Assembly (NCBI GenBank): GCA_027923505.1
Contig: BROI01000001.1
Span: forward strand, 1,612,001 to 1,676,000
Origin: Mayamaea pseudoterrestris
Taxonomy: Eukaryota
Length of the DNA: 64,000 nucleotides
Direction: 5' to 3'
Shown here: positions 33,869 to 59,757 of the stretch, piece after piece
Position numbering within the stretch: position 1 is the first letter of the stretch
How the letters are laid out: each line of letters starts with the position of its first letter
Program-made: the position numbers and the translations under genes
The notes under the pieces: model-generated
The model's input: the letters and a program-made list of their open reading frames with translations, nothing else
Told to the model about the DNA's origin: nothing
The model's database searches: none

Positions 33869-35673
33869 GCCATGGTTGCCGTGTCATGGACAGGAGTTGA
33901 GGAGATGGAGAGCCGCTCATCCAAAGTTGAAAAACTGTAGCTCAAGGTTTTGCTACATGGAGTAATACAAGTCCTCCAAGATATTTGCTAAAGAGATGAT
34001 CTAAGGGCAAATGGATGTCACACATGAGGCATATACGGCAAGTGCAGCTATTTCCGGCAACCCCCCAAAGTATTTATGTGCCACCATCGTAGCAAGTTCA
34101 GAAATGGTCTCCATCATCATATATTCCAAGTATCTGCCGTGACAATGAGTTCAAATGTGTGATTGGGCACTTCAGATGATCAATCACACGTCCGAGGACA
34201 CGCATTCGAGCCAGCTTTTCCATAGCATCCATCACCAAGTACTATCTACCTCGAGGACCATGTCAAACGACCATTCCCTCCGTTTTGTCCTTCCGCTTAT
34301 TGTGGAGGGACACTTTAATGATGATCCATGGTCGAATCTGAAAGGCTGACTGGACACTGCACTTTTAGGCGGCAGCATAAGTTCTCCATAGTGGCAGTAC
34401 CTGCAGCAGCTTTAGTAGTAAACTCAATGCGCTGTTGGGTAATTTTCAATAAGAGAGCAAATTGATATCTTTCTTTGTGTTGCGGCATGCTCGTCTTGCT
34501 TTGCGGCGGCTTTAGCAGTGTTAGCAGCAAGAGTGTCGGCATTGGATTTGTACAGCACCGCGAGCATTTATACCAAGCAAGATTCGATGCAAGCAAGGAT
34601 TGGCGTATCTCGTTGGAGGCTTAATAAGCAACCAGCAATGAATAGTCAGCCGCGTCCAGCTCGTTGCAGTTCTTGGAAGTAGCGACGGGCGACGGCCATT
34701 GCGCCTATGCTGGCTTGGTGTACTTTTGCCGTCACGTCAGCCATTTAGAGAGTAGCGACTCGAAAGCTTTGGACCCCTGCGCTCGCATCCATTACATGAG
34801 AAGCTAGCTTGGCCCATCCCTGACTGCTCATAAATTTTTGCATTTATCTTTGTTGCCTTGGTAGTGCTGGCTTTCGTCTGCGACTCGCTATTCCGGTAGG
34901 GTCGTGCTCGTTGCCACACTACCGGAATCAGCTGCTCTGAGTCCTTGGCAGCTATTTGCCATCCACACTTGTTGCTGCTGAGACAGCTTTCGTGCGAGAA
35001 ACAGTATTTTCATGCTTGCAAGCGTGGTCATGATGGCGGTTGATTGTCAGCTGTCTATGCATTTGTATCGCTCGCCAAGGCAACATCGCAATCGGCTACA
35101 ATCTTCTTGAACACCTCTGAACCTATAGCGTCAACTCTTGGCTTTTCATTCCTCCAGCTAGTCAATTTTATGGCAATGTTATTGGCTCCGTGGCCATTTC
35201 TTTGGCAGAATTCCAACCACTTTGGAGGTCCTCGTTTGGGATTGGGATGGACTGACTCGCTCCTCACTTTGATGGCTTGCTATTTTAGATAAAAATCTGA
35301 CTCATATTGACAACAGTACATGGCATTGTTAATGCTTGCGTATCGTATACATTGACAGAGGCAGCAGAAGAGCAGGTATAGTAGTAGTATATTTATTTAT
35401 CGCCATGGTCAATGCAACGGATGGCTCCTCGAAGCGGGATTTTGAATGGGTCACGATGCGACAATAGCACGGTTCCCCTCCACGGTGGCGCGTCGCTCAA
35501 GGCCACACTCTCCAGTCTCCATTATTATGCCTCGCTCATCCTTGCTTGATTTCAACAAAATGGGCAGACCATTTCCGAGAGCAACATATATTTTACTCCT
35601 TCTTTTTTTCTTCCTTTGAATGAGCGAGCGCCAAGCCATGGACGATGGAGCATTTGATGCGACTCAGCCTTTC

Positions 35674-38600
35674 TGCTAAGAGGCTGGCTGGCAAATACAT
35701 GCTATAACTGATGAGCTAGTCAGATCAATGAGAAGGACCGTAAGGGTCGACTACACTTGACCTTCCCTCCAGCTCATGGCGGCAGGAGGGAGGCTCGGAT
35801 GGAAGCCCAAGATACCCATGATGGGGAATGGCGATTTCTAAGTGGGTAGCTGGCCAGGCTCGCTAGCGGGAGCGGCTGGCGCAAGATCAATCCCTTTTGG
35901 CGGTGCTCCCAGGGGACCGGTCAGGTCGGTGGAATGCACAGGAGCAGGGTGACGGAACAACACACCCTCACCACCGTCCTGATCGGGAGGAAAAGTGGTA
36001 TCAGCATCCTAGAGGAGTTCAAAATAATTGTAAGATGGAGCATTAGGCTCATGCAAGTAGACGGTTCAGATTTGCTGATGGTGGGAGGTGGGATGATGCT
36101 TGGTGAAATAATCGGCCAGGTTGAGGCAGCCTTTGCGCCACAAGATGATAAATTGACCTTGGTTGACACGATCGCAGACCCAGTAGAAACGCATGTCGCA
36201 CGCTTTTGAGCGTTTTTGCTTGACTGTGTCATTGGCAATACCAGCAGTGGTGCTATTGTCGGTTTCAACAATTTTCCTCAAGGGCCGTGCGTAGGGGGCA
36301 GGCTTCCTTGCAGTTGTGGAAGAGGGAGCCAAGCTCAGTTTCAGTGGCGCTGGAGAGGACTTCGTGCATAATTTTGCATTCAATGTGCACTGGACCATTT
36401 AGAGGTGGCGGTGACGCAGTAGCGGGTGCATCATTGGGCGGCGAGCTGAGAAAGAAATAGCCGCCGGTGCGGGAGCAAGATTTGGGCGCAGAGAGATGCG
36501 AGCCATCGGAGACAACGTAGAGAATCATGCCACTGGCGGTGAAACGCACCACAGCATTGGAATGTGTTGCTGCATAATTTAAAAACTGGGTTAAAGCTTT
36601 CATGGTGTTTTCTGTAGGCTTGGATTGTAGCGAACCAAGTTTGCCGAGGGCCATGAGCATCGTGTTATCAATGCCACGCGCGTAGCACAGGAAAGTACCA
36701 ACAATCTCTTGGACATGCGTGATGCTATCAACAGCGACGGATGCAGAATCGTCATCTGGTGGGGTGTATTGTGGGCCTTTGCCGTACACTGGTTTTGTCC
36801 AGGCAAAGGGGGAGTGCTGTGGCCGCTTCGGATGTGGGTGCTTGAAATGCAGCAGCGCACGTTGAACGTAGCCTGGCATGGAGATGTCGCAGTTGCGGTT
36901 CACCTAATCCCAGACGATGTCAATGCCACAGTATTTGCTGCTGGTCCAATCAATGCTGATAGTATATTTCGCAAATAAGACAACAATGAGGCGTTGGCCT
37001 GCAGCTTTGTCGGGAACACAGACACCAAGTCATCAACAATGAGCGTGAAAACAAGTTTACTGCGTTTGTCAATCCACAGGCCAGGGGTAAGCGTCGCTGG
37101 TGCAAAATCGTGAGGGGCAAGGTATGCGACGAGTTGATCGTAAGCAATGCAACCAGCTTGTTTGAGACCATACATGCCATGATGAATTTCGACGACAGCA
37201 TGACCATTGTGGATGAGGTCAGCGAGACGGTATTGTTCCCGGATATCATCGGGAATGGCCCAGACAGGAATGTGCATGTATTCATACTTGTCCATTGGTG
37301 TGTTGAGGTAGAAATCTTTGATATCAATAGTCAGGAAGGTAGCACCGGGTGAAGAGACAACTTTGTTGAGCAGGAGCTTGACGGTGGCCAGGTCGGCGGA
37401 CTTTGTGCTCACGTCGCCGGCGTAGTCGAGTCGGTCCCCGCCAACAGTGAAAAGCACCCGGCGCGGATTTTCCTTTTCAGAGCGCCATGCAGACACAATG
37501 CGAAGGTACGTGACTTTCTTGTGCTTAGGGACAGCAGTGTGCGGAATGAAGAACATTGTATTAGTGCCGGTTGCCATTTTGTCATGACCATGGCACAAGC
37601 ATCCGATTTCATCTTTGCAAGCGTCAATCCAAAGCGCGCCTTCACTGCTTTTAGACAATTCGTGGTAGTCAGCAATGGCGCCAGTATCGGGGTCAGCGCA
37701 TTGCCAAGCATGGCAAAATGATGCTCTGCAAGCGACTTTTGTGTGGCCAGTGCAGATGGATGGACGGTGCGGCTGGGACCGAGCTTCTTCTTACCAGCAG
37801 CTTGGCGCGCGGCTTGTTTGCGTCGGCTCTTACCAACTGGACCAGTCATGTCAGAGTATGTAGCAGGTGGTGCCAATAGCAAAACACACTTGTTTGCTTG
37901 GAGAGGTCACCACCCTCAGAGCTGGGGCAGCGTCAGTGGACTCCACCCTCAGAGGTGGCGCACTAGGAGTAGTCGGCGGAGCAGAAACTTTGGAGAGGAC
38001 TGTCATTAAGTTCTGTAATGTGGTGATGTGACTATCGGTCAGCGGTGCAAGAGGTGATCCTGGAGAGGGATGCAAAAGGGCATGCGTAATGTCAGCAATG
38101 CCAGCCAAAATTAAATCAGTGGAGGAGGCAAGGGGCATAGTCACCTTTGTTGGGAACCATTTGACAGTGTCAACAATGCGAATTTTCTTGGTTTCCCAAA
38201 TCCAGATCTGGAAACATCGATAGGATTCCAGCGCTGGGCCAACATACCAGCCATCAAGGGCATGTGGCGACCAAGTAGTGTGCTGATCAGGTGATTCAAA
38301 AGCAAGAACGCAAATGCCTGGAGGCGCAATGGGCGTGCGATTGAAATCAAACTGGCCATACAACTGGGCGTAGGCACTTAGCTTGGGGTTTATGCGGGAG
38401 CCACGCAGTAAATTGACGGTAAGTTCTGCTTGTGGGACAAGGCGATCCCATAAGTGCAAAGGAAAATCTTTGTTGGTACTGCAGAGGCCGGCAAAAAAAT
38501 GATTTGCAAATGTGCGAATACAGCGCTCAGCTGCATTGCGACGATAGTTGTGCGGCGGCACAAGCTGATAATCAACGCCTTCATCACGCATATATTCTTT

Positions 38601-41294
38601 GAGTAGCGTGGACACTTCATTGTCCAGACGTTGGAGGACCGGACGCAGACCGGCAGCACACAAGCAGGCATGTAGGACTTTGTAGGCAGCACAAATGTGT
38701 GACACATACCAAGTTTTGAACAATTCAATTACGATTGTGTTGCTATCATAGTCATATAGGACCATGAGGTATTGATTGCTCTCACTGGATGCGCAGACAA
38801 ATTGGCCTGTTTGATCAGTGTAGATTTGGCCCATAGGTTTGATAATGTTGATGTAACGATGGTGCTCGTCGCGGATGGCGCCAACGTTGGGTGGAGTGGG
38901 AAGCGTTGGTCCGGCTGTCGCGAGCTGGTGATTTTTTAGTTGAGTGAATATTTTGGCGCTGATGATCCATGTGACCTTTGTGCATGGGGATAGAGACAGG
39001 TGGATGACGCCGCAGTGTCTCGACAGTAAGGCCTGGGAAGTTGGTGATGTAGTTCTTAGATAATGCTTTTTCCAGTGTCGTGAGCGCTGGTGAAAATAAG
39101 CTGGCATGCGCAAATGCCACAAGCTCGGCTGGAGTGGCTGCGCCAATTGCCACGTTGGCAGTAGCAAGAGGAGCATGCGTTGGTAGGGAAGGTGGAGGGC
39201 CAGGAAGATCAATGTGCCATAATTTGGTGGAAGGATGCCAATGACCGGAAAGGAGGAGGCTGTCATGATGCAAAATGTGCACACTGTCCTTGTCAAATTT
39301 GATATCGCAACCAGCATCACAGAGCACTCCAATAGAGAGCAAAATGAGTAGCAAGTTTGTGGGAACAATATGACCAGGCAAGCATCAGGTGGGAGACAAT
39401 CCAAATCCAATTCGGCAATGTGAGTAGAGTGCATGATGTCGCCATTTGGATTGGAAATAGTGATGCCACATGTCGTTGGTCATTTATTTATGACGGGTGC
39501 ATCAATGCGGAAATAGTGGCTGGTGCAGCCCGTGTCAGCAATAATACTTGTTGGCAAAGGAGTCGGAACAACGTCGGCTTGAGAAGAGGCAAGTGACTCG
39601 GCAGGAACGTTGGCCTCATGCATGAGAGTAGGTGTGGTTTGTGTTAAAATAGATTTTGGATGAGGAGTGGGCTGGGCTACAATGGCAGACAATGGAGTAA
39701 CAGCAATTGTTTTGTTTACATAGTTATTGTCTGGCATTGTAGCTGGCCCTCCCCGTCACGGATTATCTGTCGACGTCGCAGCCGCAGCCGAGCCAGAGGC
39801 AGTGCTGCTTGTGCCTGCGCGAGCGCGACGTGTGCGTCTATGGTTGATGTGATCGAAGCCGCCCATGCGAGATTCCAAAGTAGCCGCATCTTGATGACCA
39901 TCCTTTTTATTGTTGCATGTGCCACTGGTGTGCGCGGCCACCTTGCATAAACCATGGCTCCAACAGTAATACCAACCGGGAAGAGATGACGTGCCACCAG
40001 CAGCAGCGTTGTTGGCAGGTGCAGCACCAGTGCGCGGAGGATTGCGTTGAGCTGCATTAGCACCATGGTAGCCAGCGGTGCGACTCGTTCCCGAGGTGAG
40101 CGTTCACGTTCAGCAGTAGCCATGAACAGAATAAACGCATTCATGGTGGCTTGCGCTGGTGGATTCGTGTTCCATTGATACACAGCATTGCTGTAAACTC
40201 TGGCCTGGTCGAAAACCTGAATCGTGGCGTTAATAGCAGCAGAATCGGGAATCGGCTCGCCACCAAGTTCAGCAAAATACTGCACATCAGCGACCAAGGT
40301 CCAGCGTGGATCCAAACCCTTGTCGACATCGAACGGTGTTGCTAGAAGCAAACGATTTTTGGCCAAGTCATTTGCTGTCATGATTGCGTATTTGGCTTCG
40401 ATCCATTGGAGCAGTTCGGCACCAGATTGATTTTCAAATCCAATTCGGCGGTCGCGGCAACGTTCGATGTAGATTGGTTCGATACACGCAATGATCCCTT
40501 GCTTGACACTTTTGAGGACTTCTTGATGAAGCGTATAACGAGCATGCGCTGCTTTCCAAGTGTTGGTAGCGTTGGCGATAGCCTGGTTGGTAGCGTTATT
40601 GGCAATGACAGGGCCATCACCAGGATTGGGTGGAACTTCATAAGCCTCAGTACCTGGAAGGGCAAGATATTTGGCGGGTGGTAGAAAGGAGCCAAGATGA
40701 CCATGGCTGCCTCTGCCAGCAGTAGTAGTGACAGTCATGAGGTTGGCATGGATCTTGGTGCAAAGGTTGGCACACAACCTGAAGTTGGGCTGGCCATTGA
40801 TGGGTGTAAAACTCTTGTGCGGCATTTGCTCGAGGAGGGAAAGGACGTTAGAGGACATGATGGTAGACTCATCAAACGAAAAGGTGGCGAGAGGGACAAC
40901 AGCTCAAATGGCGATGGCGTAGGCGTGAAGCGTGCAAGGCACTAAAACAGTTTGGTAGACTGAAGGCTTGCTGCAAGGGCAAATGGGAGAGTTTTTGACT
41001 AGCTCTGCTAAGAGGCTGGCTAGCGAATACGTGCTATAACTGATGAGCTAGTCCAATCAATGAGAAGGACCGTAAGGGTCGACTACACTTGACCTTCCCT
41101 CCAGCTCATGGTGGCAGGAGGGAGGCTCGGATGGAAGCCCAAGATACCCATGATGGGGAATGGCAATTCCTAAGCGGGTAGCTGGCCAGGCTCACTAGCG
41201 GGAGCGGCTGGCGCGGGATCAATCCCTTTTGGCGGTGCTCCCGGGGGATGGGTCAGGTCGGTGGAATGTGCAGGAGCAGGGCGACGGAACAACA
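35674..41294 (-). mobile_element. Ty1/copia LTR retrotransposon, family 2; full length but decayed
   Basis: 289-bp LTRs 41006-41294 (5') and 35674-35962 (3'), TG...CA ends. TSD CTTTC at 35669-35673 and 41295-41299. Purine-rich tract before the 3' LTR. About 18 differences between the LTRs by manual count. Confidence 0.93.
36066..40858 (-). pseudogene. Family 2 gag-pol, frameshifted
   Basis: Gag (HGHLG), protease (IADTGCTSHY), integrase (IYTDQTG, RLDNE, RRNAAERCIRTF), RT (DIKDFYL, MYGLKQAG, IVDD), RNase H (ETELGSLF, TDN, DMRFYW, NLADYFTKHH). The INT-RT-RH order indicates copia. Confidence 0.9.
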
Positions 41295-42664
41295 CTTTCG
41301 ATCCTGCATTTCGAATCCTCCCTGCTACGCTTTCTCTCAACCGCATGCTTCAGGAAACTGGTTTGGTTGACCATATCGTTGATGGATTCTATATGGGCAC
41401 TTTAGCAAAAGATGCTGCAAGACGAGTCGCAATCATCATGGAAGAGCTCTCCCAGGCCGCCGGACCGGTAAATGATCGCCTGGATGGTCTCATTCAAGAA
41501 ATGTTCCACCTTGCGCACTACTACATCACCTGTAAATCCTTTGCCTTTCCCTTCATGTCTTATGTCATTTGTCATTGGCGTTTAATTAATTGGGCCATAG
41601 GTGAGAAAATACTCACTACCACAATGGACCTCTTTATTCAAGCGGTGAATCTACATGGCCTTGAGAGTTTCGATTATTTCCTATATTTCCTGATCATAAA
41701 TCTGGTTGATGGAGCTGTTGTTTTGTTATTAATACCTGAAGTCCAAGATTTTAGCCCTTTCCAGGTTGGAAACTGGAATGCTTACTTTGCGGAACGTCTG
41801 ATTGATGCAACTGGAGGGATTGATGAGCTACTCTGCTCGGCCAGTGCAATGGACATGGAGTGAGAGGTATCACCACGGGACCTTATTTGATTTCTGCTAG
41901 TTGTTCTTATTACTCATTTGCAATGGACACCTTGTCATGACAAGCAGCGGCATGAATGACTGCGTGCGCTCATCGCTGCTTTAGTTTGGGTCAACCTGCC
42001 AAATGGAAATGATGCAGCAAACGCGGATAGTGAGAATGGGATGAGTTGGACATGATCAGTTGGATTTACGCATTTGTTGATGAAGCGAATAAAAATTGAT
42101 ACAGTAGATTGCTTGTAAAATTACACTCTACCGTAGGTGAATTCGCATTGCGCTACAGATTGCAGAAGTTAGTGTGAAGCTCAGGAGGCACGCGTACCAA
42201 TGACGTTCACGTCCAACCTTCAATATCTGATATAAGGGAACTGTCACTAAGCCTGTGCTTGTCATGCTTTTATAAAGCAGACTGGCGCTCTAAAAGGTAA
42301 TTGATAGTTGCAATGCTTCAACATTATCGATCCAGAGAATGCTTTAACAAAGCCCGTCTATCGTCGCTTTCACCAATCCGTCTACCTAGCCATTACTCTA
42401 CATGATAAGGTGCGTTTATCCCAAGTGCTTGCATGGAATCACATTCAGCTGCACCTTGCCAATGACAACTCCATGACACAGACAAAACATGTAGATGACA
42501 AAGAGGTTCAATAGATTCAATTAGGAATAGTGAAGTCAATGCTAATCAGTGCATGCAAAACATGTCGGATGCAATCTTCCGCCACCTTTCAAACAGTTCA
42601 CTGCATTCCCAAAGACAATCTCTCCGACACCATGGTCAATGTACCACTCCATCAAGGAAAGCTA

Positions 42665-45600
42665 TTAGGAGGTAAACCGGTGCCTCTGGAAGGTGAGTAA
42701 GGCTTCCTCGTCAAGGTTAAACCATGTCTCAATGGCTTGGTTTTCCTGCTCAAATGACCAGCAAATGCAACCAAGAATGCAGAGTTGCTGCAAGGGAGGT
42801 GACGTCTTGTTTTGATCTTGAATACAATATGGACGAGCCAAAAAGTCTGGAGACAAGAAATAAAAATCAGTCAGCGAAGCAACACCCCAAGCATTCATTG
42901 CTTCCTGGATCAAGCCATTACAGAGCACTCCGTTCATGAGATTTGTCATGGCGGCAGCTTGTAGCTCCACTTCTTGGTCACCAATCCCATCAGTGACCAA
43001 TGAAATGGTTGGCGCCGGCAAATCTAAATTTGAGCGATGAATGTCAGCAGTCACCGATGCAAGAGCAGTCTGCTCCCAAGGGTTGACGTTGACAGACAAA
43101 GTAGAAGGATTCTGATTGAGTGTTTCCAGCAAACCCAAGCTACCGCTAGCAGCAGCAACAGCAGCAGCAGCCACCAATGCAAAAGTAGTCTGCTCCGCTT
43201 TGCTAGGGTTGACGTTGCCCGACAAAGTGAAAGGATTCTGATTGAATGTTTCCGGCAAACCCGAGCTACCACTAACAGTTGCCGATGCAACAGCAGTCTG
43301 CTCTCCAGGTTCAATGTTGCCTGACAAAGTAAATTGGTTCTGATTGAGCATTTCCGGCAAACCCAACTGCTCCGCTTTGCTAGGGTCAACGTTGCCCAAC
43401 AAAGCAAAGGGATTCTGATTGAGCGTTTCCGGCAAACCCAACCTACCAATAGCAGTAGCCAATGCAAAAGCAATCTGCTCCACTTCGCTAGGGCCAAAGC
43501 TGCATGACAAAGGGAAAGAATTCTGATTGTGCATTTCCAACAATGGCGGAGCCTTCTGCTTGAAACAAATGCCTAGCACTCTGAGTCGTCAAAATGGTTG
43601 CGTCGAAAGCACTTCCAATTCACCATTTTCATGGTGCGCATACAAGGCCTGCTGTGTTTTGCACCAGCGTTGGAGAAACGATCCATTGACTAGCTCAAAT
43701 GCCAAGGTTACAGTGTTTTGATGCTCTTTCGGCTGCTGGTACATGTCGCTCCATGAATCATTGGCTTCGGTTTCTGCCCCCTCGTTAAAATTTCCTTGGC
43801 ACTGCCTTTTTCGGGCATGCAAGGCTTTCTGCACGTTCTCCCCTTGTGTCTGGTGCGTCTCAATGCTACGTTTGCGAACGTCCATTGCCGGCTCGAGTGC
43901 AGCCATCTCACGTTGGTGTGCAGCATTACGCACTCCATCTCCGTCATAATTTCCATGAACTGTGGCAGCCACATGGGCAACAACTGGGGCCATAAAAGGA
44001 GCAGCACTGGGAGCCAGAAGAGAAGCAGCAGCTGCAGCTCCACCAAAAGCAAAAAGTCCAGCCACAACAACTAAATCCGCGTCGTTAGCAGCAGCTCGCT
44101 GAGTCGGAGCTGCAACAGGAGCCGGAGCGGCAGCCATAGGAGCATACACTTCTAGATCCATCATGTGACATTCAAATTTGCCATCCCAAGCATTTGGAAT
44201 CTGTGTATATAAGTCATGGCAGCTATTGTTGTTGGAGTCGCTTAATTCTTCCTTTACGTCATTGTTGGAGTCATTATTGTCATCTTCCTGCCACATATCG
44301 TGGACACGCAAGGGATCGTTCCAGTTCCAAGCAATTTGAATGCCAAGACCATTCAACTTGTCCAAGACACTCTCCTCGAAAGTCTTGGCAATCTTTATGA
44401 TACGCAACCATTCAAGCCAGAGCGCCAAGGCATTCCATCCCTTGTTAAATGATACGTTGCAATTCTTGAACTAGCCACTGGAAGTGAAAACAAGATCTGC
44501 ATCAATCATTGCTTTGAATCGCTCGCGACTCAAATCGCCAACGCAAAATAGAGAGCACTGTCGTATTTGCCAACGATTCAGCTTGTGGTTCAGTCCAGTC
44601 ACTTTGTTTTCACGCTGAGCAATTGTAAGCAAACTCAGCGAATACTTCCATTTGCGTCAGCTGTGATGAGATACATGATCAGGGTCATCAATGTTGTCTT
44701 GCTTCTTGGACTTTGTCTTCTTGTTTGCTGTCGCATTTGGTGCATTGCGCGTGACTTTGTGGGTGTTCTTGCAATCGCGGTCCTCTCAAAATTTTCTGCG
44801 CCACCAACGCAGGGGAGCCAGCCGACAATGCTTTTGTGCCAGACTCCTTTCACGTGGCTCGTCTACCGAGCATACGTTACAGACAGATGATTGTAATTTG
44901 CAAATTGTAGCATATCAAGCTGCTGCACTTGTGGCAGTGAAGGGTAAAAAAACTCAATGAGCCAGTCATGGGTGATTTAAAGCAAAAATGATTGAACCTA
45001 ATTTGGATTAGTAAATGTTGCTTTCATTTGAAGGTATCCGGCATCCGATCCATTCTCTTCTGTAGTGCTCTCATTGTTGTATTCATTGTCTGATCCATCC
45101 CCATCACCACTTTTGCTTTTGTCATGGTCTTCTTGCTCACCAGTTGCGGAGCAAAACACTTCCACCAATTTCTCACGTGTAAATCCGACTTGATGATGTT
45201 TGCAAATGAATGCAGCTGCGGACTGGTCTATAAACTTTACTTCATTTGACGCCGTAGCCGCGCCAGGTGCCTTCTTCGTGCCGCTTGATGTCGTTCCCCT
45301 CGTTGCAGTCTTGTGCTTGCCTGCTTTCTTTTTGCCTGGCAATGTCGCTGCTGAAGCCGCTACATATGCCTTATGTTTCTTCTTTTGAACAGGCTGGTTG
45401 GCAGCCAAACGCTTCTGTTTCGTACTGCTTGGCGTAGGCACAATTGGCCTTGCAAGGACAAATGTGTATGGATACAGAATTGTAGCTCATCCATTCTTCA
45501 CTGCAACAGTCTCATCAAGAGTCATTGATTCTTTCAGTTCCTCTGCAGTCAGCTTGACCCAGATGTCACCCATCTTACTTCTCCCGTCAGTCATCCCTTT

Positions 45601-46236: not shown

Positions 46237-47848
46237 AGCGTTTGTGCAGTAGGAATTGATGGTGGATGGTGTTCATGGCCGCAAGTCGAAAGCGTGCGTG
46301 CGTGAGTGCGTGCGTGCTTGAAGTCGGGTCTGTACCAGTACGACATAAATGCGATGAAAAATAGCAAGCAGTCCAAGGCCTGGATGGAACTCAACACAAA
46401 AGGTGTTGCGGCGGGACCAATACTCAATGACAAAGCAAAACTAATTACACCGTTAGAACCTGCTTGACTTACTTAGTAGATCTAGTCCTTTAAATCAATG
46501 AAAACGGTCTACTATAAGCTTTAAAAGGCCAATGATTTGTGATGCGGGGTGGTGGGTCAATTTTTGAAAACTCTGCGTTAAGTCGCTGAATGAACAAAAA
46601 CCCCAGAGCGTATACCGGTACGAGTGCACAATGCCCTGCCATTACCACGTCCAATGGCCAGCAACAAAAAATACAACGACAATGATGTAGGCCATTCAGT
46701 ACACAACATGTCGAGAAACTCACACCATAATATTCCAATAATCTATAACATGCTTGCAGGATTGGATCCTAAGCTTGCTCTCTTGATTCACACCACGGCT
46801 ACTCAAGTTAGCAAAACAGCTACTCAAGTTAGCACCATGGCTGCTCAAGTTAGCCAGCAAGGTACTCAAGTTAGCCAGCAAGGTACCACCCTGGACACCA
46901 TGGCCAAGAACGTCAGCAATACTTTGCAACTTGTCATTAGCATGAATAATGGTATGGCTAAAAACCATCAGGCCACCCTCGCCAACCAGACTGCCAACCA
47001 GCAGCAGATCCTTGACACCCTCGCCAACCAGCCAATAATCCTTGTGCACCAGGAGCAGACCCTTGCCATTGTTGCCAACCAGGCTGCCAACCAGACGGAA
47101 AACCTTGCCAACCAGTGGCAGATCCTCGACATCCTTGCCAACCAGCCGAAAATCCTTGTGCACCAGCGGCAGATCCTCACCAACCAGGATGCCAACAAGC
47201 GCGCCACAACTGGGCAGCTCAACACTCTCCTGGCCAACCAGGCTGCCAACCTGACGGATAACCTTGCCAACCAGAAGTAGATCCTTGACATCCTTGCCAA
47301 CCAGCCGACAATCCTTTTGAACCAGGAGCAGACCCTTGCCATCGTTGCCCTCCAGCAGCAGATCCTCGACAACCAGCCAAAGATCCTGACCAACCAGGAG
47401 CAGATCCTCAACATCCTTGCCAACCAGCCGACGATCCTCACCAACCAGCAGCAGATCCTTGACACCAACCAGCAGCAGATCCTCAACATCCTCGCCAACC
47501 AGCCAACGATCCTCACCAACCAGCAGCAGATCCTTGACATCCTTGCCAACCAGCCGGATATCCTTGACATCCTTGCCAACCAGCCGACGATCCTTTTGCA
47601 CCAGGAGCAGACCCTTGCCATCGTTGCCCTCCAGCAGCAGATCCTCGACAACCAGCCAAAGATCCTGACCAACCAGGAGCAGATCCTCAACATCCTCGCC
47701 AACCAGCCGACGATCCTCACCAACCAGCAGCAGATCCTTGACACCAACCAGCAGCAGATCCTCAACATCCTCGCCAACCAGCCAATGATCCTCACCAACT
47801 AGCAGCAGATCCTTGACATCCTTGCCAACCAGCCGGATGTCCTCACCT

Positions 47849-50800
47849 TGACACAATATTATTGAGTTGAGTTGACCTGCGTCTTATGACAAGACGGTTA
47901 GCTACCTGTGTTTTGTATGCATTTAATCCTGTGCAGGGTTGAGTCACACTTGTGACCGAATCCTCACATACATGAGTGAAATCGCTGACGATCGAGGCGT
48001 GAACCTCGACCGTGAACCCAGTGAGAACGAGAAAGAAGCGCACGAGTAGAGTAGCGAGTAACATGCACTATTCTAGCAATTGAGTTTGTTTGTTTGCTTT
48101 ACGCTGGACGAAGAGGTTGATCGCTCCTAGTCCATTGTAGTCGCTGGAATAAAGGTTCGTCTGATATTATCGTGTCAGATTAACAGTCTTGCTAGCTTGT
48201 CTTGACCTGAGAGAGCTGTGCGAAAGAGAGAGAGTGAAAGAATCGAGAAACTGAGAGAGAAAGAGCAGATTCCTTGCGGCGTCGTCAATCCGAATACTTG
48301 ACGCGAGCGCGTAGAACAGGATCGTATAAGGCTCAACTGCATTGAGAGCGGTTGTTGTGTGAGAAAGGACTTGCGGAAAGCGAGGTATTCACTATCATGG
48401 TTTCGGTTACTGCGGAAGCTTTGCAAGCGCTCTGCGTGAACGTTTTCGGACGAGACATCCAAGAAGCGTTCTTGTTTTGGAATGTAACCACCACTACCCA
48501 GATGTTGAGATTGACCAAGGAGCAACTTGAAGCCCCCTACTGGGTCGACAGAGCCGCCATCCCAGCTGGCGTTGAGCAACCTGAAGGCGCGCAACCCGAC
48601 GATGCGCAGCCGGGCGACGAGCCGGCCGACGAACCGGCTGAAGAACAAGCAGCCGCCGCCCCAGTACGATACGAAACGCGTCTACCACCAGTCGACGTGA
48701 ACCTTATCCTCGATGCATGCGAATGGTTTAACATGCACGACGGAGCCCCGAACACCAAGAAGTGGGCGGAACTTGATTTAGGCAAGCTCGAGCGATTCCA
48801 AGAAAGACTCGCCGAACAAGAAATCGGTCGGAAGCGTGAAGAAGGGTACTATATCCTCGAGTCCAAGAGGGCGCAAGCCAAGCTACTTGCCAAGCAACTC
48901 GAAAATGAGAACTTGAAGGCTGAGAAGGCCGAAAAGGAAGCGGATGCCAAGGGTCGATTCTCGAACATCAAGACGAAGCGAGATTACAAGGACTACAAAA
49001 CGTTCCAGCATCCCCACGGGTGGTTGAGTTGGAGCGTCTACCAAGGCAATCGCCAAGCTCCATGGCTGTTCTAACGTGCTCGATAGCAAGTACGTACCAG
49101 TCACGGAAGAAGAGAAGGAAGAGTTTAAGGAGCAGCAAATCTTCATGTACACTGCGTTTCGCAATTGTCTCGAAGTACCTGGATACCAGTCGCTCCTAAT
49201 GAAGTACGCTGACGAGTCTGACGCTCAGAGCGTCTATCGCGATCTCGCGACCAAGTTTGGTTCCGGCGAGTTAGCTACCATCCAAGCGAACGAACTGCAA
49301 GCCAAGCTTGCGACGATCCGCCTAGATTCGACCTGGACGAAAGGACACTACAAGTTCCTAAACTACATCGAACAGCTCATGAAGAATCTCGAGGAGTTCC
49401 GTCCTGGAGTGACGGATGACAAGAAGAAGTACTACTGGCTCCGAGCTGCAGTGGAAGGCGACGAAGAATTCGGCCCCACGTGCACGACATTCGACCAGCA
49501 CTTGACATTTGAACGACGACGCATCATTAGTGCAGGCGGTGACCCAGACGCCATCGTAACGGAAGATTATGACTATCTTTTCGACATGTTGTCGCAGCAG
49601 GCTTTGCGCATCGACAACAAGAACGCCAAGTTGAACAAGGGCAAGAAAAACGCCGACCGCCAAGTGAACAACGCGAACACTACCGGACACGGACGTGGCA
49701 ACGGACGCGGTTCCGGCCGTGGTGGAGGACGCGGCGGTCAAGGCGGACGCGGCGCTGGACGAGACGGTGGACGTGGCACCCAAGCGGGCCGCGGTTCCGG
49801 AGGACGAGGCTCTTCCGCGCCACTCCCAGCAGCCGGTACGCAAGCGCATCGGGAACGATTCCCTGGTGATTATCTGAACTTTGAACAGTTGTTGCAGGCC
49901 CCCTGGTCGTACATGTCGTACGAACGACTCGGCCGACTTAACGAGGACGAATACGCTCAGCTCATGGCTCGACGCGAAGCCGTCCCAAGACCCGCCACAA
50001 CAAGACGCGCGAACAATGGCAACCGCGCGAATAACCAGCAGTCACAAGCGGCTGCCTCGGTGCCTGGTACAATCTTGTATCAGAATGACGCTGTCTCGAT
50101 CGCCCCGACGACAGCCACTCAAGGTGCACCGGATGACATGATTAGATCTTTCCTTGCGAACGCCGCGTCGTCTCGCACTCAAGCTGCGAATAACACCCAG
50201 CAAGAGTTTATGGGAAGCGACGGCCGTCGGTACCGCGCAATGGTATCGGTGCGCTACACTGTGAATCGAGCTCGCAGCAACGAGACCCGCCAAGGATCGC
50301 TGATTGACGGCGGTGCGAACGGTGGACTCGCTGGAAGCGATATGAGAATCTTGAGTACTACCAACCACACGTGTAACGTGACAGGTTTGAGCGACCACAC
50401 GGTTCGCGACCTCCAAGTCGGAACTGGCGTCGCATTGATTGAGACTCGGACTGGACCCATTATCGGTCAGTTCAACCAGTATGCTTTGTACGACGGTGCT
50501 GAATCCATTCATGCTCCATCGCAGCTTCGTTCGTTCGGCCATCTGATCGACGACGTCGCTCGCTCCCAGAATGGAGCACAAGCCATTGTCACCAGTTGTG
50601 GCAAGACCATCCCCTTGGCGATCCGTGACGGCTTGCCTCGTATGGATATGCGTCCGCCGACGGACGCAGAGTTGGAAATGTATCCGACGGTCATTTTCTC
50701 TGCGGACACCCTTTGGGATCCGGCGGAGCTGGATAATGAATGGAACGAAGAAGAACTTGAGTTTAATCGTCGCTTCGACGAATTGGAAGAAGAACACGGC

Positions 50801-53800
50801 TTCGTCGACGCCCGCATGGATGACTTCGGCGACGCCACCTACCGAAACAACATGAACTCAGTGGAACGTGTGGTGCAGTATGTCGATCGCAATCAGGCTG
50901 ATACGACGCGCCAAGCCAATGCACGACGCATAATGCCACAAGAACCTGACTACCAAGCGCTTCGACCCTACCTTGGCTACACGCCACTCGAACGAGTCAA
51001 GCGCACCATTAAGAATACGACACAGCTTTTCCGTGCATCGGCACACACCCCATTTCGCCAACACTTTAAGTCGCGATTCCCTGCCGCCAATGTGGTTCGT
51101 TTCCATGACGATACGGCGACAGATACCTGGTTTTCCAAGGAAGCCGCCTTTAACGACGGAATCCGCGGCCATGGCGGATGCAAGATGATGCAACTGTTCG
51201 TTGGCAAGAAGAGTCTGCTGACGAGGGGATACCCACTGAGAACCGAGAGTGACATGCCCATGGCGCTCGAAGACTTCATTCGAGACATTGGCGCTCCCGA
51301 CTTGCTCATTAGCGATAACTCGCGAGTGCAGCTCGGGAAGCAAGTTGAAACTTTGTTGCGATTCTACGCGATTCGTGACCAACAGAGCGAGCCCGGATAC
51401 CAGAACCAGAACCCTGCCGAGCGTCGCATCCAAGAAGTCAAGTCATCAGTCCAGAACATCATGAACCGTACGGGCGCACCCGCTGGAGCCTGGCTCCTAT
51501 GCGCGCTGTACGTAATCGCCTTATTCAACAATCTGGCGACCGAGTCCCTCAACTGGAAGACACCTACTGAAGCCGCCTTCAACCGAGTACCCGACATTTC
51601 GCCGTTCCTGCAGTTCAAGTTCTGGGAACGAGTCCTGTATGAAGCTGGAGCCGACGAGCCGCCGACATTTCCTCACACCAAGGAAGCAGCAGGACGCTGG
51701 GTCGGTATTGCAGAGAACAAGGGTGACATCCTCACGTACCAAGTTCGATCCGATCGGACTGGAATGGTTGTCGTCCGATCCAACGTTCGTCCCTTCTCCG
51801 AAGGACGTAACCTACGCGCTGAAGCTGAAAGCGCTCCTGAACCCGAGTCCGAACGACCACTGTTCGCGGAACCTGTCTTCGACGCGCGCCCCGCGCGTGA
51901 ACGAGTCCAAGTCGAAACTGTCGACGAGTTTGACGATGAGTATGACCTAGTCGGTCCGGTGTTTGAACACGACCTTACACCGACCCCAGCGCCTGATTCT
52001 GGGGGAACCGTGGATGAAGACGCATTCACGTTGGAAAGCGCTGCCGAGTTAGCCGGTCTGGATCCCGACGGACCCATGCCGTCCTTTACTCCGGCTGAAC
52101 TGATGGGACGCACTGTCCTTCTTGACGAGGAAGACGGCTCCACGCGACGTTACAAGGTTATCGAGCAACTGAACGATCGCGATGAAGCCAACCACAAGAT
52201 CATCAAGTTCCGATTGAGTCTCGGCGACGGCGACGTCGATGAGCTTATTACCTACAACGAACTAGCCGACCTGTGCGAGCGGCAAGATTCTTTACGACTG
52301 GGGGACGATGACAACGACGACCAGTACTACAAGTTTGATTTCATTGACGGACATGAAGGTCCACTGACACAAGCCGACGCTACGTATCGCGGCTCATCCT
52401 ACAACTTGCTCATCCAATGGGCAAATGGCGAGAAGACCTGGGAGCCACTCGCATTGATCATCAAGTCCGACCCTGTGACCGTTGCCGAGTATGGCAAGCG
52501 CAAGGGCATGCTGGACAAGGATGGATGGAAGCGCTTGAAGCGCATGGCAGGACGCACTAAATTGTTTAACCGCATGTGCAAGGCTGCAAAGAAGAACCGT
52601 GTCCAAGAAGCGCGTTTCAAGTTTGGCGTTCAAGTTCCTAATACCTGGAAGGAAGCGAACCGCCTCGACGCTGCTAATGGAAACACCCTGTGGGCTGACG
52701 CCGTCAAGACTGAGATGGAGCAGCTACACGAGTACGACACTTTCATCGACAAGGGCATCGGTGCCTTCATGGAAAGTGACTGGAAGCGCATCAACGCGCA
52801 TCTTGTTTTCGACTGCAAGAACGATCTACGACGTAAGGCCCGACTCGTCGCCGGGGGACATCTGACCGCTCCGCCCAAGGACTCCGCCTACTCCGGCGTT
52901 GTATCTATGCGAAGCATTCGAACCATAGCACTGTTAGCTGAACTGAACGACCTCAAGTTTTGGGCTGCCGATGTCGGTAACGCCTACCTCGAGGCCAAGA
53001 CCAAGGAAAAGGTCTACATTGTTGCCGGTCCCGAGTTTGGACCATTGGAAGGCCATACCTTGGTCATCTACAAGGCACTTTACGGATTGCGCACTTCTGG
53101 CGCGCGTTGGCATGAGCACTTTGCCGACACACTCCGCGACATTGGATTCTACCCAAGCTACGCGGATCCTGACGTCTGGATGAAAGACTGTGGCACTCAC
53201 TACGAGTACGTCGGCGTGTTCGTCGACGATCTGGCTATGGCCATGAAAGATCCACAAGCCTTCACGGACCTCCTCAAGGACAAGTACAAGTACAAGTTGA
53301 AGGGCGTCGGTGACATCAAGTATCACCTTGGAGCCGACTTCTATCGTGACCCCGATGGAACCCTCTGCATGAGCGCGAAGACCTACGTCGGTCGCATGCT
53401 CAAGAACTACGAGACCATGTTTGGCGAGAAGCCACGCAAGCGCAAGTCACCGCTTGACGACGGGGACCACCCCGAACTTGACCTTACCGAAGAGCTGGAT
53501 GCCCGTGGCATTCAACAGTACCAGTCTCTTATCGGTGCCCTCCAGTGGGCAGTGACCCTATGTCGACTTGACATTCATTGTGCCGTAATGACACTTGGCC
53601 GATTCCGCTGCGCCCCGCGCCGTGGACACCTGGACCGAGCCAAGCGAGTCTGCGGTTACCTAGCTGAGTACCCTGACGCGGCGATTCGTTTCCGGACGAA
53701 GATCGTCGATCACGGGGAACCTACCAAGTATGATTGGTTGCAATCGGTCTACGGCAACTCAAGCGAAGAGCTTCCGTGGAACATGCCGATCCCGAAGGGC

Positions 53801-54650
53801 AAGCCTGTGCAACTAACTACCTTTATGGACGCGAACCTGTACCATGATTACACTACTGGACGTTCCGCAATGGGAGTCCTGCATTTCCTGAACCAGACGC
53901 CCGTCGAATGGTTCTGCAAGCGTCAGAATACTGTCGAGACTGCAACGTATGGATCCGAGTTCGTCGTCGCCAAGACCGCGACGGAACAGATTATGGATTT
54001 CCGGTACTCCCTACGGATGTTGGGAGTTCCTTTGAGTGGACCAGCCTGGAAATTCGGCGACAACGAAAGTGTCAAGAAGTCGTCAACGATCCCGCACTCC
54101 ACACTTTCTAAGCGACACAATGCGCTCGCCTACCACCGAGTTCGCGAGGCCATTGCAAGCAATGTTCTGTACTTTGAGCACATCTTCGGCAAGCAGAACG
54201 TCGCCGACGTTCTTACCAAGTTCTTGCCGCATGCCACGTTCCGACCCCTGATCATTCCGATTCTTTTCTGGAAGGGTGATACGGCAAACCGATCGTTGTC
54301 ACAAGCCTAGATCAAGGGGGATGACACAATATTATTGAGTTGAGTTGACCTGCGTCTTATGACAAGACGGTTAGCTACCTGTGTTTTGTATGCATTTAAT
54401 CCTGTGCAGGGTTGAGTCACACTTGTGACCAAATCCTCACATACATGAGTGAAATCGCTGACGATCGAGGCGTGAACCTCGACCGTGAACCCAGTGAGAA
54501 CGAGAAAGAAGCGCACGAGTAGAGTAGCGAGTAACATGCACTATTCTAGCAATTGAGTTTGTTTGTTTGCTTTACGCTGGACGAAGAGGTTGATCGCTCC
54601 GAGTCCATTGTAGTCGCTGGAATAAAGGTTCGTCTGATATTATCGTGTCA
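47849..54650 (+). mobile_element. Family 1 copia copy C; full length (6802 bp) and very recent
   Basis: LTRs 47849-48177 and 54322-54650 with two differences seen. TSD CACCT at 47844-47848 and 54651-54655. PBS 48178-48191; PPT about 54309-54321. Confidence 0.97.
48397..54310 (+). CDS. Gag-Pol polyprotein (Gag, PR, INT, chromodomain-like segment, RT, RNase H) with one 2-bp deletion near 49035
   Basis: LIDGGANGG; DTW/SDN/AERRI; KARLVAGG, ADVGNAYL, LYGL, FVDD; MDAN, GSEF, GDN, NVADVLTK. GGAGCGTCTA here versus GGAGCGCGTCTA in copies A and B explains the frameshift. Confidence 0.93.
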
Positions 54651-55869
54651 CACCTGCCAGGAGCAGATCCTTGCCAACCAGCAGCAAATCATCGCCAACC
54701 AGGCTGCCAACAAGGATGCCACTACTGGGCAGCTCAACACTGTCCTTGCCAAACAGGATGCCACTACTGCGCAGCTCAACACTGTCCTTGCCAAACAGGA
54801 TGCCACTACTGCGCAGCTCAACACTGTCCTTTCCAAACAGGATGTCACTACTGAGCAGCTCAAATCTCTTCTTGCCAACCAGATGCAGATCCTTGCCAAC
54901 CAGACTGCCAACACGCGGGCCATCAACAAGATGAATCAGGCCATCAACCAGGCGAATCGGGCCATCACTAATGTGTACACAGCTATCGATACTAAATTCA
55001 ACAGTCTCACTGAGCATATCACCGACAAGATGCGTCGCATGAATACCAATTCAGTACTTCTGTGCGCACTTATCATGACTTGATGTTGCCGCCTCTTGCA
55101 AATATTGATACACGCATTGGTGAGGTTATGGTTGGGATGCAGGTCTTGCTTGGAGGCATGCAGGCAGGCCCAGCCGGTGTAGGCCAAGGCCAGGCGGGCG
55201 GCAACGAAGAAGCCGAGGTTGGCGTGGATGCTGAGGCAGGCGCCAACAAAGAAGCCGAGGTTGGTGCGGATGCTGAGGCGGGCGCCAATGAAGAAGCCGA
55301 GGTTGGTGCGGATGCTGAGGCAGGCGCCAACGAAGACGCTGAGGTGGGCGCCAACGAAGAAGCCGAGGTTGGCGCAAATGCTGAGGCGGGCGACATTGGA
55401 GCTGGTGAAGATGGCGCCGACAAAGACACCGAAGATGGCGGCAACAAAGTTGTCAAGGAGATTGACATTGCGGCAGATGCCTAAGACTTGAGTTCAAAGT
55501 TTGAACATGGAGGGACGGCGTTTGGAAGGGCCGTTTGTTGGTGGAACAATATTATTACATGTTTATTTCATGGTCATTTGAGACTGGTGCTCAAGCTTGA
55601 CGCAGCTTTGACCAATTATAGTTTTAGTTGATGACTATTTCAATATACATGTAGTTGTCGTCAAAGGTGATACATAGTAAAGTAGTTGATGCTGCGTAGC
55701 AAAGCCACGGCAAATCTTCGCAAGCCACTCGTTTCCGTGTCGCAGCGATTATAAATGAGTCATGCTGCGACGTTTTACGAGTTGGCAACTTGCAGCCATG
55801 AAGATTCCACTCGATTCTTTTGTTGGCATGTGTCTCTCCTTGCCGATTACATTACCCTACACTAGCAAT

Positions 55870-59395: not shown

Positions 59396-59757
59396 CATAT
59401 GTGATGTATGACGTCATAAGTGACATATGTGACTCATGCTGACAGGTGTCGCATGTGAGGCATATGTCGACATATGTCGCATGTGTCGCATATGTCACAT
59501 ATGCGATTTTTCAAGCAGCATAAAGTCCGCAACAAAACAGCTACAACCAAAAAGTAAATAGGTGATTATTTACCTCTACCATTGCTTTATCTGATGAAAT
59601 ATTGCTGGTTGCAATCAGAGGTCTATAGGTGACAAAATGGTGGTTTGAAAATGGCTGTTTTTCATGCATCGACATATGTCGCATGTGTGACACCTGTTGA
59701 CACGTGTCGCATATGTCACATATGTCAACATATGCCCCTTGCGTCACATGTGATGTC
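59396..59757. repeat. Two mirrored arrays of CATATG/CANNTG 9-bp-periodic motifs
   Basis: 59420-59470 aligns without gaps to the reverse complement of 59669-59719 (40/51 identical by manual count). Confidence 0.7.

Follow-up and report, generated by a model that had tools for sequence, protein, structure and literature searches.

Probable self-priming of reverse transcription in a Ty1/copia retrotransposon lineage with a decayed copy in Mayamaea pseudoterrestris

A Ty1/copia lineage, represented by one decayed element in the 64-kb stretch of Mayamaea pseudoterrestris DNA analysed here (the window), probably resembles Tf1 in using its own RNA, and not a tRNA, to initiate reverse transcription. 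The site immediately after the 5' long terminal repeat (LTR) was complementary to a segment inside that same LTR. This pairing was observed directly, as were its precise placement with respect to the end of the LTR and its retention, through compensatory changes, among relatives. The window element itself, referred to as Family 2, is a dead copy on the minus strand, with a broken coding region and a putative priming system that has decayed to 9 exact pairs. The first-pass annotation of the window had raised the possibility that this lineage is independent of tRNA, a suggestion that now appears well supported by the comparison with relatives.

Assignment of the element to Ty1/copia followed from TG...CA LTRs, a 5-bp target-site duplication, the gene order protease, integrase, reverse transcriptase (RT) and RNase H (PR-INT-RT-RH), and an RVT_2-type RT, all of which were found (Table 1). 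In the alignment of the LTR pair, 271 of 289 positions were identical and 18 differed. The coding region was split into four ORF pieces (39716-40903, 37851-39479, 36900-37790 and 36265-36903) with stops and frame changes between them, along which DTGCTSH, an integrase-like stretch, LIVDDL and ADYFTKHH occurred in that order. Pfam matched RVT_2 on the piece at 36900-37790 (E 6e-10) and returned no match for the other five ORF pieces; intact relatives, 1200-1400 aa long, also have RVT_2. The junction of the polypurine tract with the 3' LTR, GAGGG/TGTGTT (translated GEGV), was conserved in relatives. The sole hint of a link to the diatom CoDi copia lineages came from the nearest RT cluster in the ESM Atlas, which lists Bacillariophyta, the phylum being given for a single one of its members. 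Comparison of the contigs of runs X1 to X4 at 80% likeness recovered the same single copy and neither further copies nor starts or ends.

Table 1. Features of the Family 2 element, in window coordinates
Feature	Position	Strand	Remarks
Target-site duplication GAAAG, upstream copy	41295..41299	-	5 bp; bounds 5' LTR
5' LTR	41006..41294	-	289 bp, TG...CA; found as direct repeat, aligned
CTCATT, window form of conserved CTCAT(A/T)A	41059..41064	-	just 5' of arm; putative initiator
5' arm TTGGACTAGCTC, in 5' LTR	41045..41056	-	putative self-primer; core 41053..41045 pairs exactly
Loop, last 39 nt of LTR	41006..41044	-	putative strong-stop template
3' arm GAGCTAGTCAAA, at primer-binding-site position	40994..41005	-	begins at first base after LTR
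Broken gag-PR-INT-RT-RH coding region	36265..40903	-	four ORF pieces
Polypurine tract GGACGGTGGTGAGGGTG	35963..35979	-	adjoins 3' LTR; pol frame reads through (GGEGV)
3' LTR counterpart of 5' arm, TCTGACTAGCTC	35713..35724	-	without downstream partner
3' LTR	35674..35962	-	289 bp, TG...CA; followed by GAAAG and host flank, no 3' arm
Target-site duplication GAAAG, downstream copy	35669..35673	-	bounds 3' LTR

The first-pass annotation had claimed that the 12-mer following the 5' LTR complements the element's own LTR 39 nt from the LTR end, that each LTR departs from the 12-mer at a different single base, and that the post-LTR site lacks TGG. We recovered the complementarity at the same coordinates, found the 39-nt spacing true of both LTRs, and could verify the single-base differences and the missing TGG in the window sequence. 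Both LTRs contain an exact complement, 9 nt long, of the core GACTAGCTC. The arms of the window copy formed 9 exact pairs, or 11 of 12 overall. The duplex ends exactly at the boundary between LTR and internal region, because the next pair would set A opposite A. RNAfold placed the 9-bp stem in the minimum-energy structure, and the 116-nt segment as a whole was not more stable than its shuffles (z = -0.05). A chance complementarity in a single decayed element could be argued from the mere 9 exact pairs, from this ordinary overall fold energy and from the several elements that the first-pass annotation probably took in. Against it, dinucleotide-preserving shuffles of the 5' LTR, scored for an exact complement anchored 0-3 nt after the LTR end, reached at least 9 nt in just 67 of 20,000 cases, and a 12-mer with no more than one mismatch arose in 20 of 20,000. 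We give coincidence almost no weight, and it was in practice refuted by comparative data: the same feature, in the same place and with compensatory changes, was present in 38 of 80 related loci.

These relatives were 80 metagenome loci encoding a related RT (39-66% amino acid identity). An exact form of the hairpin, with a stem of 10-15 bp, occurred in 34 of them, hairpins having first been picked by a scan for perfect stems, an ascertainment bias that controls of strand, slide and position offset in part. Four more loci had an imperfect stem with one mismatch or bulge, and in eight only a 3' LTR was present. Among the loci of at least 5 kb (n = 40), 30 had an exact stem, 2 an imperfect one and 6 only a 3' LTR, with 2 unresolved. 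A table of 36 hairpins was checked by hand and replaced a motif filter that had given three false matches (two in L012, one in the window element) and had missed L003, L039 and the true site of the window; a very relaxed scan returned mostly noise and was dropped. The layout was that of the window copy, with the 5' arm inside the LTR and the 3' arm running from the first base after it. L030, with 100% identical LTRs of 201 bp and the duplication CTCCT, looks recently inserted; its 3' arm adjoins the LTR without an intervening base, as do the 3' arms of L018 and L001. Independent placement of the LTR end came from the L057 family, in which the 3' LTRs of L024, L031, L032 and L078 stop exactly at the end of the loop and are followed by unrelated flanks, and from the L042 family, where L035 revealed the same LTR end. 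All 29 matches to a covariance model of the clade lay on the sense strand; the decayed window copy scored 11.2 bits against this model (E = 1), and only with filters off. There were two exceptions: L027 had an arm-like segment without a complement downstream, and L076 carried the 3' arm after both LTR copies, which we read as a tandem or assembly effect. Contig ends of the related loci showed no poly(A) tail and no start at the arm, so that no contig could be taken for a transcript, and a scan of viral_contigs with the RT alignment found no relative. Searches for tRNA genes found none in the 64-kb window and none in 60 related loci. Loop lengths ranged from 23 to 55 nt; a self-priming element must hold R and U5 within this loop, which is unusually short and speaks against self-priming.

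Complementarity was kept while the sequences of the arms were not. The 36 hairpins had 32 distinct 10-mers as 3' arms, and post-LTR sites differed between families (GAGCTACGTAAA, GAACTATCTAA, GTTCTAGCAAGA, GACGTTACTA and others). In a plain MAFFT alignment of 10 sequences (A2), 87.7% of cells paired, against 28-43% when the partner was slid by 1-3 columns, and both sides had changed in 9 of 13 pairs. The covariation score of this alignment was 0.530 compared to 0.176 in shuffles, and none of 500 shuffles reached it; the same stem was the only consensus structure predicted by RNAalifold. A model-fitted alignment with 27 distinct rows (A3) gave a similar picture, with 87.9% of cells paired and both sides changed in 11 of 13 pairs. 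Conservation of the duplex with compensatory change was the test that the first-pass annotation had named, and it was clearly passed; the ancestral perfect 12-bp duplex proposed there is likewise in keeping with the perfect 10-15 bp stems of the relatives. Since the post-LTR site varies between families, no conserved cellular RNA can be their common primer, and the retention of pairing between arms that differ by family excludes a tRNA primer common to the clade and is consistent with self-priming.

Conserved pairing indicates functional pairing, which is not in itself priming, and functional stems around the primer-binding site are found in retroviruses and in Ty1. The stem could thus be a structural U5-leader hairpin, with a role in packaging, dimerisation, translation control or presentation of the primer site, while some other primer does the priming. 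We consider this unlikely. In every verified case the stem fills the whole primer position from base +1, so that a separate primer would need the same bases, yet these make up 32 distinct 10-mers in 36 hairpins. No TGG-type post-LTR site was found in the listed elements, with the sole exception of L080, in which the TGG lies inside the paired arm.

A second alternative retains a host tRNA but dispenses with TGG. In half-tRNA priming, as in copia, Ty5, FunCo1 and Bianca, an internal tRNA fragment binds the post-LTR site, and the complement in the LTR would be incidental. Such half-tRNA sites, which have no TGG, are frequent in Ty1/copia (PMC6317226, PMC5445492), and the other copia element of the window, Family 1, has such a half-tRNA-type site (GATTAACAGTCT). 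The half-tRNA sites of FunCo1 (ATTAAGAGTCT) and of the plant elements Osser, Bryco and Bianca resemble those of the clade in lacking TGG and lying directly after the LTR. They differ in being conserved and in matching a tRNA anticodon stem-loop; no such site is apparent in Family 2 or its relatives. Conservation of the tRNA keeps half-tRNA sites constant within a lineage, whereas the site here varies by family and tracks the element's own LTR. By the usual rules for tRNAs, no register of the window site combines U33 with a purine at 37, and presumably, as the first-pass annotation had held, no anticodon loop fits. We regard half-tRNA priming of this lineage as very improbable, behind the structural hairpin.

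Self-priming from the LTR-encoded segment, the reading we prefer, would begin at the 5' end of the transcript. The fold-back segment of the LTR directly follows CTCAT(A/T)A, and probably coincides with the transcript 5' end or lies no more than a few bases from it. In all 36 hairpins a CAT[AT] or CACT motif was present 2-8 nt upstream of the arm. This motif resembles the oomycete INR, given as YCAYTYY with transcription from the A (PMC3599244), and CTCAT(A/T)A just 5' of the arm may, judging from this likeness, be an initiator element. The 3' end of the fold-back segment pairs with base +1 after the LTR. If the RNA is cut immediately behind this segment, presumably by the RNase H of the element, as happens in Tf1, the resulting 3'-OH would lie precisely at the point from which minus-strand synthesis has to proceed to account for the LTR end that is seen. 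Strong-stop DNA would then be made on the loop, the rest of the LTR. If the RNA primer is itself copied during plus-strand strong-stop synthesis, the post-LTR site would be rewritten in each cycle, and such rewriting would explain arms that are perfectly complementary yet drift freely.

A broader claim, on which we are evenly divided, is that a whole Ty1/copia clade, widespread in aquatic microbial eukaryotes, is free of tRNA priming. In all its members, the first ~15 nt of the transcript would prime from the base after the LTR, the site would be rewritten every cycle so that primer and site co-evolve, and the system would have an origin independent of Tf1/sushi and possibly of the plant TAR lineage. 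What is probably the same solution in a separate copia clade suggests that self-priming has evolved repeatedly or has a greater age than was assumed, and the comparative evidence is unusually clean, with arms that are near-wholly different yet paired. Software for finding LTR elements that counts a tRNA match at the primer site towards the score will call too few members of this clade or label them wrongly. Independence from host tRNAs would drop one host-specific need and might make transfer from one host to another easier. The families of the clade are also natural material for asking whether each cycle rewrites the site by copying the primer.

To our knowledge, experimental proof of self-primed reverse transcription comes from Tf1-type gypsy elements only. 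In Tf1, self-priming has been shown experimentally, including the RNase H cut, whereas the clade described here is known by its pairing and we infer the rest. The arm of Tf1 is 11 nt long, compared to 10-15 bp in the clade. Tf1 and Tf2 of Schizosaccharomyces pombe and Tj1 of S. japonicus belong to Ty3/gypsy, with integrase after RT-RH, unlike the clade, whose genes follow the copia order (PR-INT-RT-RH) and whose RT is of the RVT_2 type. On these grounds membership of the Tf1/sushi group was considered and rejected; the clade may work like Tf1. Tf1 and Tj1 prime with a segment from the 5' part of their mRNA that complements the primer-binding site (PMC4600332). In all three gypsy elements this site complements the element's own 5' LTR and mRNA instead of a tRNA, and the fold-back brings a 3' end to the first position past the LTR (PMC4600332); the clade resembles them in the complementarity to the 5' LTR and in the placement of the fold-back.

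Fungal GalEa is a copia lineage without a tRNA-type site and with a conserved hairpin at the primer-site position (PMC5445492), a combination that the clade probably shares. The Conserved Hairpin Site of GalEa lies wholly downstream of the LTR and consists of a 9-bp near-palindrome, CTGATCAGT or CTAATTAGT, whose pairing partner is a second box located after another 12-41 bp; the authors found no complement in the LTR (PMC5445492). In the clade, by contrast, the partner is inside the LTR, the arms are non-palindromic and the arm sequence is not conserved. The window element was accordingly rejected as a carrier of the GalEa site: its post-LTR GAGCTAGTC does not form a palindrome and pairs with an upstream segment located within the LTR.

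Self-priming in copia is not unprecedented, having already been predicted for the plant Ty1/copia lineage TAR, which includes Houba and Osr-1 (PMC6317226). Within the literature collection searched, we found no paper on self-priming in a non-plant copia lineage and met no description of it for this clade; the CoDi paper gave no discussion of primer sites under the terms searched (PMC2806351). TAR elements come from land plants, whereas the clade comes from aquatic metagenomes and the present genome, and TAR is compared here by its description. Under that description, at least 10 bp starting 0-5 bp after the LTR are complementary to a segment within the 5' LTR (PMC6317226). The 9 exact pairs of the window copy are fewer than these 10 bp, while 34 of the 80 relatives, with exact stems of 10-15 bp, have just such a segment.

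The Family 2 copia element of the window is a 5621-bp LTR element on the minus strand, bounded by the 5-bp target-site duplication GAAAG. Three-frame translation showed, in this order, a protease DTG motif, an integrase-like stretch, LIVDDL in the reverse transcriptase (RT) and ADYFTKHH at the RNase H end. Among its ORF pieces the sole Pfam family was RVT_2 (E 6e-10), matched by the RT piece only, and the other five coding pieces were without a Pfam family. Interrupted by stops and frame changes, the coding region now consists of at least four separate ORFs. Between the two LTRs 18 of 289 positions differ, and most of the differences are transitions. Given this LTR divergence, gene order, RVT_2 match and split ORFs, the element is a dead, fairly old Ty1/copia copy. 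No second copy was present within the window, and contigs from four public runs contained no further copy of at least 80% likeness. The pol frame of the element crosses the polypurine tract and enters the 3' LTR.

Coordinates of the two copia elements, the Family 2 hairpin and neighbouring repeats in the window
Feature	Position	Strand	Detail
Family 2 5' LTR	41294..41006	minus	289 bp, TG...CA
Family 2 3' LTR	35962..35674	minus	289 bp, TG...CA
Family 2 polypurine tract, GGACGGTGGTGAGGGTG	35963-35979	minus	adjoins 3' LTR
First 12 nt past Family 2 5' LTR, GAGCTAGTCAAA	41005..40994	minus	
Family 2 5' LTR segment, TTGGACTAGCTC	41056..41045	minus	39 nt from LTR end
Family 2 3' LTR segment, TCTGACTAGCTC	35724..35713	minus	39 nt from LTR end
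Clade covariance model match	40991-41069	minus	11.2 bits, E = 1
Family 1 copia	47849-54650	plus	target-site duplication CACCT
Family 1 LTRs	47849-48177 and 54322-54650	plus	329 bp; ~99% alike over 47849-48148 vs 54322-54621
Family 1 open frame	49028-54310		1760 aa; RVT_2 E 4.7e-25
Long tandem-repeat ORFs	42665-44470, 46720-47883, 54657-55420		units 42-126 nt
Repeats flanking Family 1	47142-47248 vs 54657-54763		81% alike
Overlapping inverted-repeat cluster	59420-59726		GACATATGTC/CATATGTGAC-like units

The first-pass annotation had proposed self-priming for this element from the complementarity between its LTR and the primer-binding-site position, and every coordinate it gave proved correct when the window was re-examined. 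Nine bases of the duplex paired exactly, its limit coincided with the LTR boundary, and each LTR departed from the full 12-mer once, at a different base. An ancestral perfect 12-mer, TTTGACTAGCTC, as then suggested, fits these separate departures, but an ancestral CG at the two differing positions is equally parsimonious by mutation count. Anchored exact complements of at least 9 nt arose in 67 of 20000 LTR shuffles, and 12-mer complements having no more than one mismatch in 20 of 20000. RNAfold predicted the stem, with local fold stability no greater than that of shuffles (z = -0.05). Taken alone, the window copy is suggestive of self-priming, no more.

Searching with the window RT piece returned 315 proteins at E <=1e-5 among 2404 candidates, the best 58-64% identical and many of them polyproteins of 1200-1400 aa on contigs of ~5.5 kb. 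With an alignment of 29 of these proteins and the window RT as the query, 80 metagenome loci were retrieved (L001-L080; RT identity 39-66%). Many of the related contigs, including L012, L018, L076 and many of ~5.5 kb, were whole-element assemblies, terminally redundant or arranged LTR-internal-LTR-internal. In L012, for instance, a 99.9% repeat of 3941 nt recurs with period 5313. Such contigs may represent tandem elements sharing an LTR or an assembly collapse of multi-copy families. In closer relatives the pol frame crosses a conserved polypurine tract/LTR junction, GAGGG/TGTGTT, read GEGV, which marks the LTR start. Ten loci (L001, L003, L004, L005, L009, L010, L015, L016, L017 and L043) likewise carry the frame across the tract and into the 3' LTR, and with the junction kept as codons GEGV(L/F) the plus-strand primer site overlaps protein coding. 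A little way downstream of the LTR start these elements followed the order found in the window: first a motif resembling CTCAT(A/T)A, next a 10-15-nt arm inside the LTR, then a loop formed by the remainder of the LTR and usually ending CA or TA, and last the arm again in exact reverse complement. Exact stems of at least 10 bp were found at 34 of the 80 loci (30 of the 40 loci of at least 5 kb), and stems with one mismatch or a 2-nt bulge at four (L037, L058, L071 and L074; two of the 40). Eight loci (six of the 40) held a 3' LTR only, with the arm and then unrelated flank, and 34 were short or without an LTR-leader junction. The last group included two loci of at least 5 kb: L022 had no recognisable junction, and in L027 an arm-like TTTACCTAGCTC was present and its downstream complement was not found.

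We checked 36 hairpins (35 from 34 loci, plus the window), with stems of 9-15 bp (median 12) and loops of 23-55 nt (median 38). Their 3' arms comprised 32 different 10-mers; the first base after the LTR was G in 32 of 36, and 22 of the loops ended in CA and 11 in TA. In a plain MAFFT alignment of ten hairpin regions (A2), 87.7% of the cells of a 13-pair stem were paired, a figure partly built in by the perfect-stem scan that initially picked the hairpins, compared with 28-43% when the partner was slid by 1-3 columns. Both sides had changed in nine of the 13 pairs, and the covariation score was 0.530 against 0.176 in shuffles, none of 500 scoring as high. RNAalifold, supplied with no structure, returned the same 12 pairs and nothing more. 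A covariance model from A2 made 29 matches at E <=1 across the window and the 80 loci, every one of them in the sense orientation. In the alignment fitted to this model, which has 27 distinct rows, paired cells made up 87.9%, again partly by selection, and both sides had changed in 11 of 13 pairs. Run with filters off on the window element, the model's sole match was the site first proposed. Compensated differences at a single pair also separate close relatives, for example L069 (AATCAC/GTGATT) and L058 (AACCAC/GTGGTT). The slide, strand and LTR-end controls are independent of the perfect-stem choice. Compensatory changes in relatives, the test proposed with the original claim, support the self-priming interpretation. 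Among families with unrelated arms the loop start (A2 columns 26-36) was conserved and resembled A(C)C(G/T)TTTAT(C)A; it may be a signal for cleavage or recognition, belong to the R region used in strand transfer, or be a polyadenylation element.

The closing pair of the stem lay exactly at LTR end +1 in six families, including the window. In L030, whose 201-bp LTRs are 100% identical and flanked by the duplication CTCCT, GACGTTACTA at +1 after the 5' LTR is the complement of LTR-internal TAGTAACGTC, and flank follows the 3' LTR; L018 and L001 had the same arrangement. Four independent 3' LTRs of the L057 family (L024, L031, L032 and L078) end in ...AATA before different flanks, the arm following the 5' copy, and in the L042 family the 3' LTR of L035 ends likewise, then flank. 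In L076 the arm follows both LTR copies, a pattern that could come from tandem copies or from the assembly.

Because the LTR end is set where minus-strand synthesis starts, the primer's 3' end must pair with the first base beyond the LTR. A tRNA, tRNA half or other conserved cellular RNA was excluded as a common primer because the bases after the LTR vary by family and track the element's own LTR. The Tf1 self-primer is 11 nt long and is cut by RNase H. The simplest reading for the clade would be the mechanism described for Tf1 in PMC4600332, where the 5' segment of the RNA folds onto the primer site and primes: the 5' segment of the element RNA would fold back on the primer site and be cut to yield a priming 3'-OH. 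All 36 hairpins carried, 2-8 nt upstream of the arm, a conserved CTCAT(A/T)A-like motif similar to an initiator. In oomycetes the INR reads YCAYTYY and its A is the transcription start; an INR was also seen in one non-oomycete stramenopile (PMC3599244). Were transcription to start at this motif, the arm would sit at the extreme 5' terminus of the RNA, which is the arrangement in Tf1. The loop would be the entire strong-stop template, so that R and U5 together would span just 23-55 nt. Plus-strand strong-stop synthesis may then copy the RNA primer and rewrite the site from the arm every cycle, which, if true, would give perfect stems despite free sequence drift.

Family 1, the other copia element in the window, looks young and intact. 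The complement of its post-LTR site, GATTAACAGTCT, reads like an anticodon stem-loop with GUU, presumably Asn, and the LTR held no complement to the site, so one genome would appear to harbour two copia lineages with different priming strategies. The site is one base different from the FunCo1 site ATTAAGAGTCT (PMC5445492). The insertion target of Family 1 seems to have been a repeat-rich gene or array; the two tandem-repeat ORFs tried against Pfam (42665-43588 and 46720-47883) gave no match. The inverted-repeat cluster is unrelated to the hairpin.

Gene order and RT type both identify the present clade as copia. Its nearest ESM Atlas cluster was diatom for the single member of known phylum, and many related loci came from records labelled marine metagenomes. 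A term search of the diatom CoDi paper (PMC2806351) found no primer-site discussion, and the literature searched yielded no published self-priming in a non-plant copia lineage. Fungal GalEa copia elements are described as without a primer site and with a hairpin entirely downstream of the LTR, their authors having sought an LTR complement and found none (PMC5445492), whereas in the window clade the partner lies inside the LTR. Experiments have shown self-priming for Tf1; for Tj1 and for two gypsy groups, Tf1/sushi and Tcn1, it has been inferred (PMC4600332, PMC6317226). Among copia elements, rice Houba and Osr-1 have been proposed to self-prime, and the same has been predicted of the plant TAR lineage, using a complement of at least 10 bp beginning 0-5 bp past the LTR (PMC6317226).
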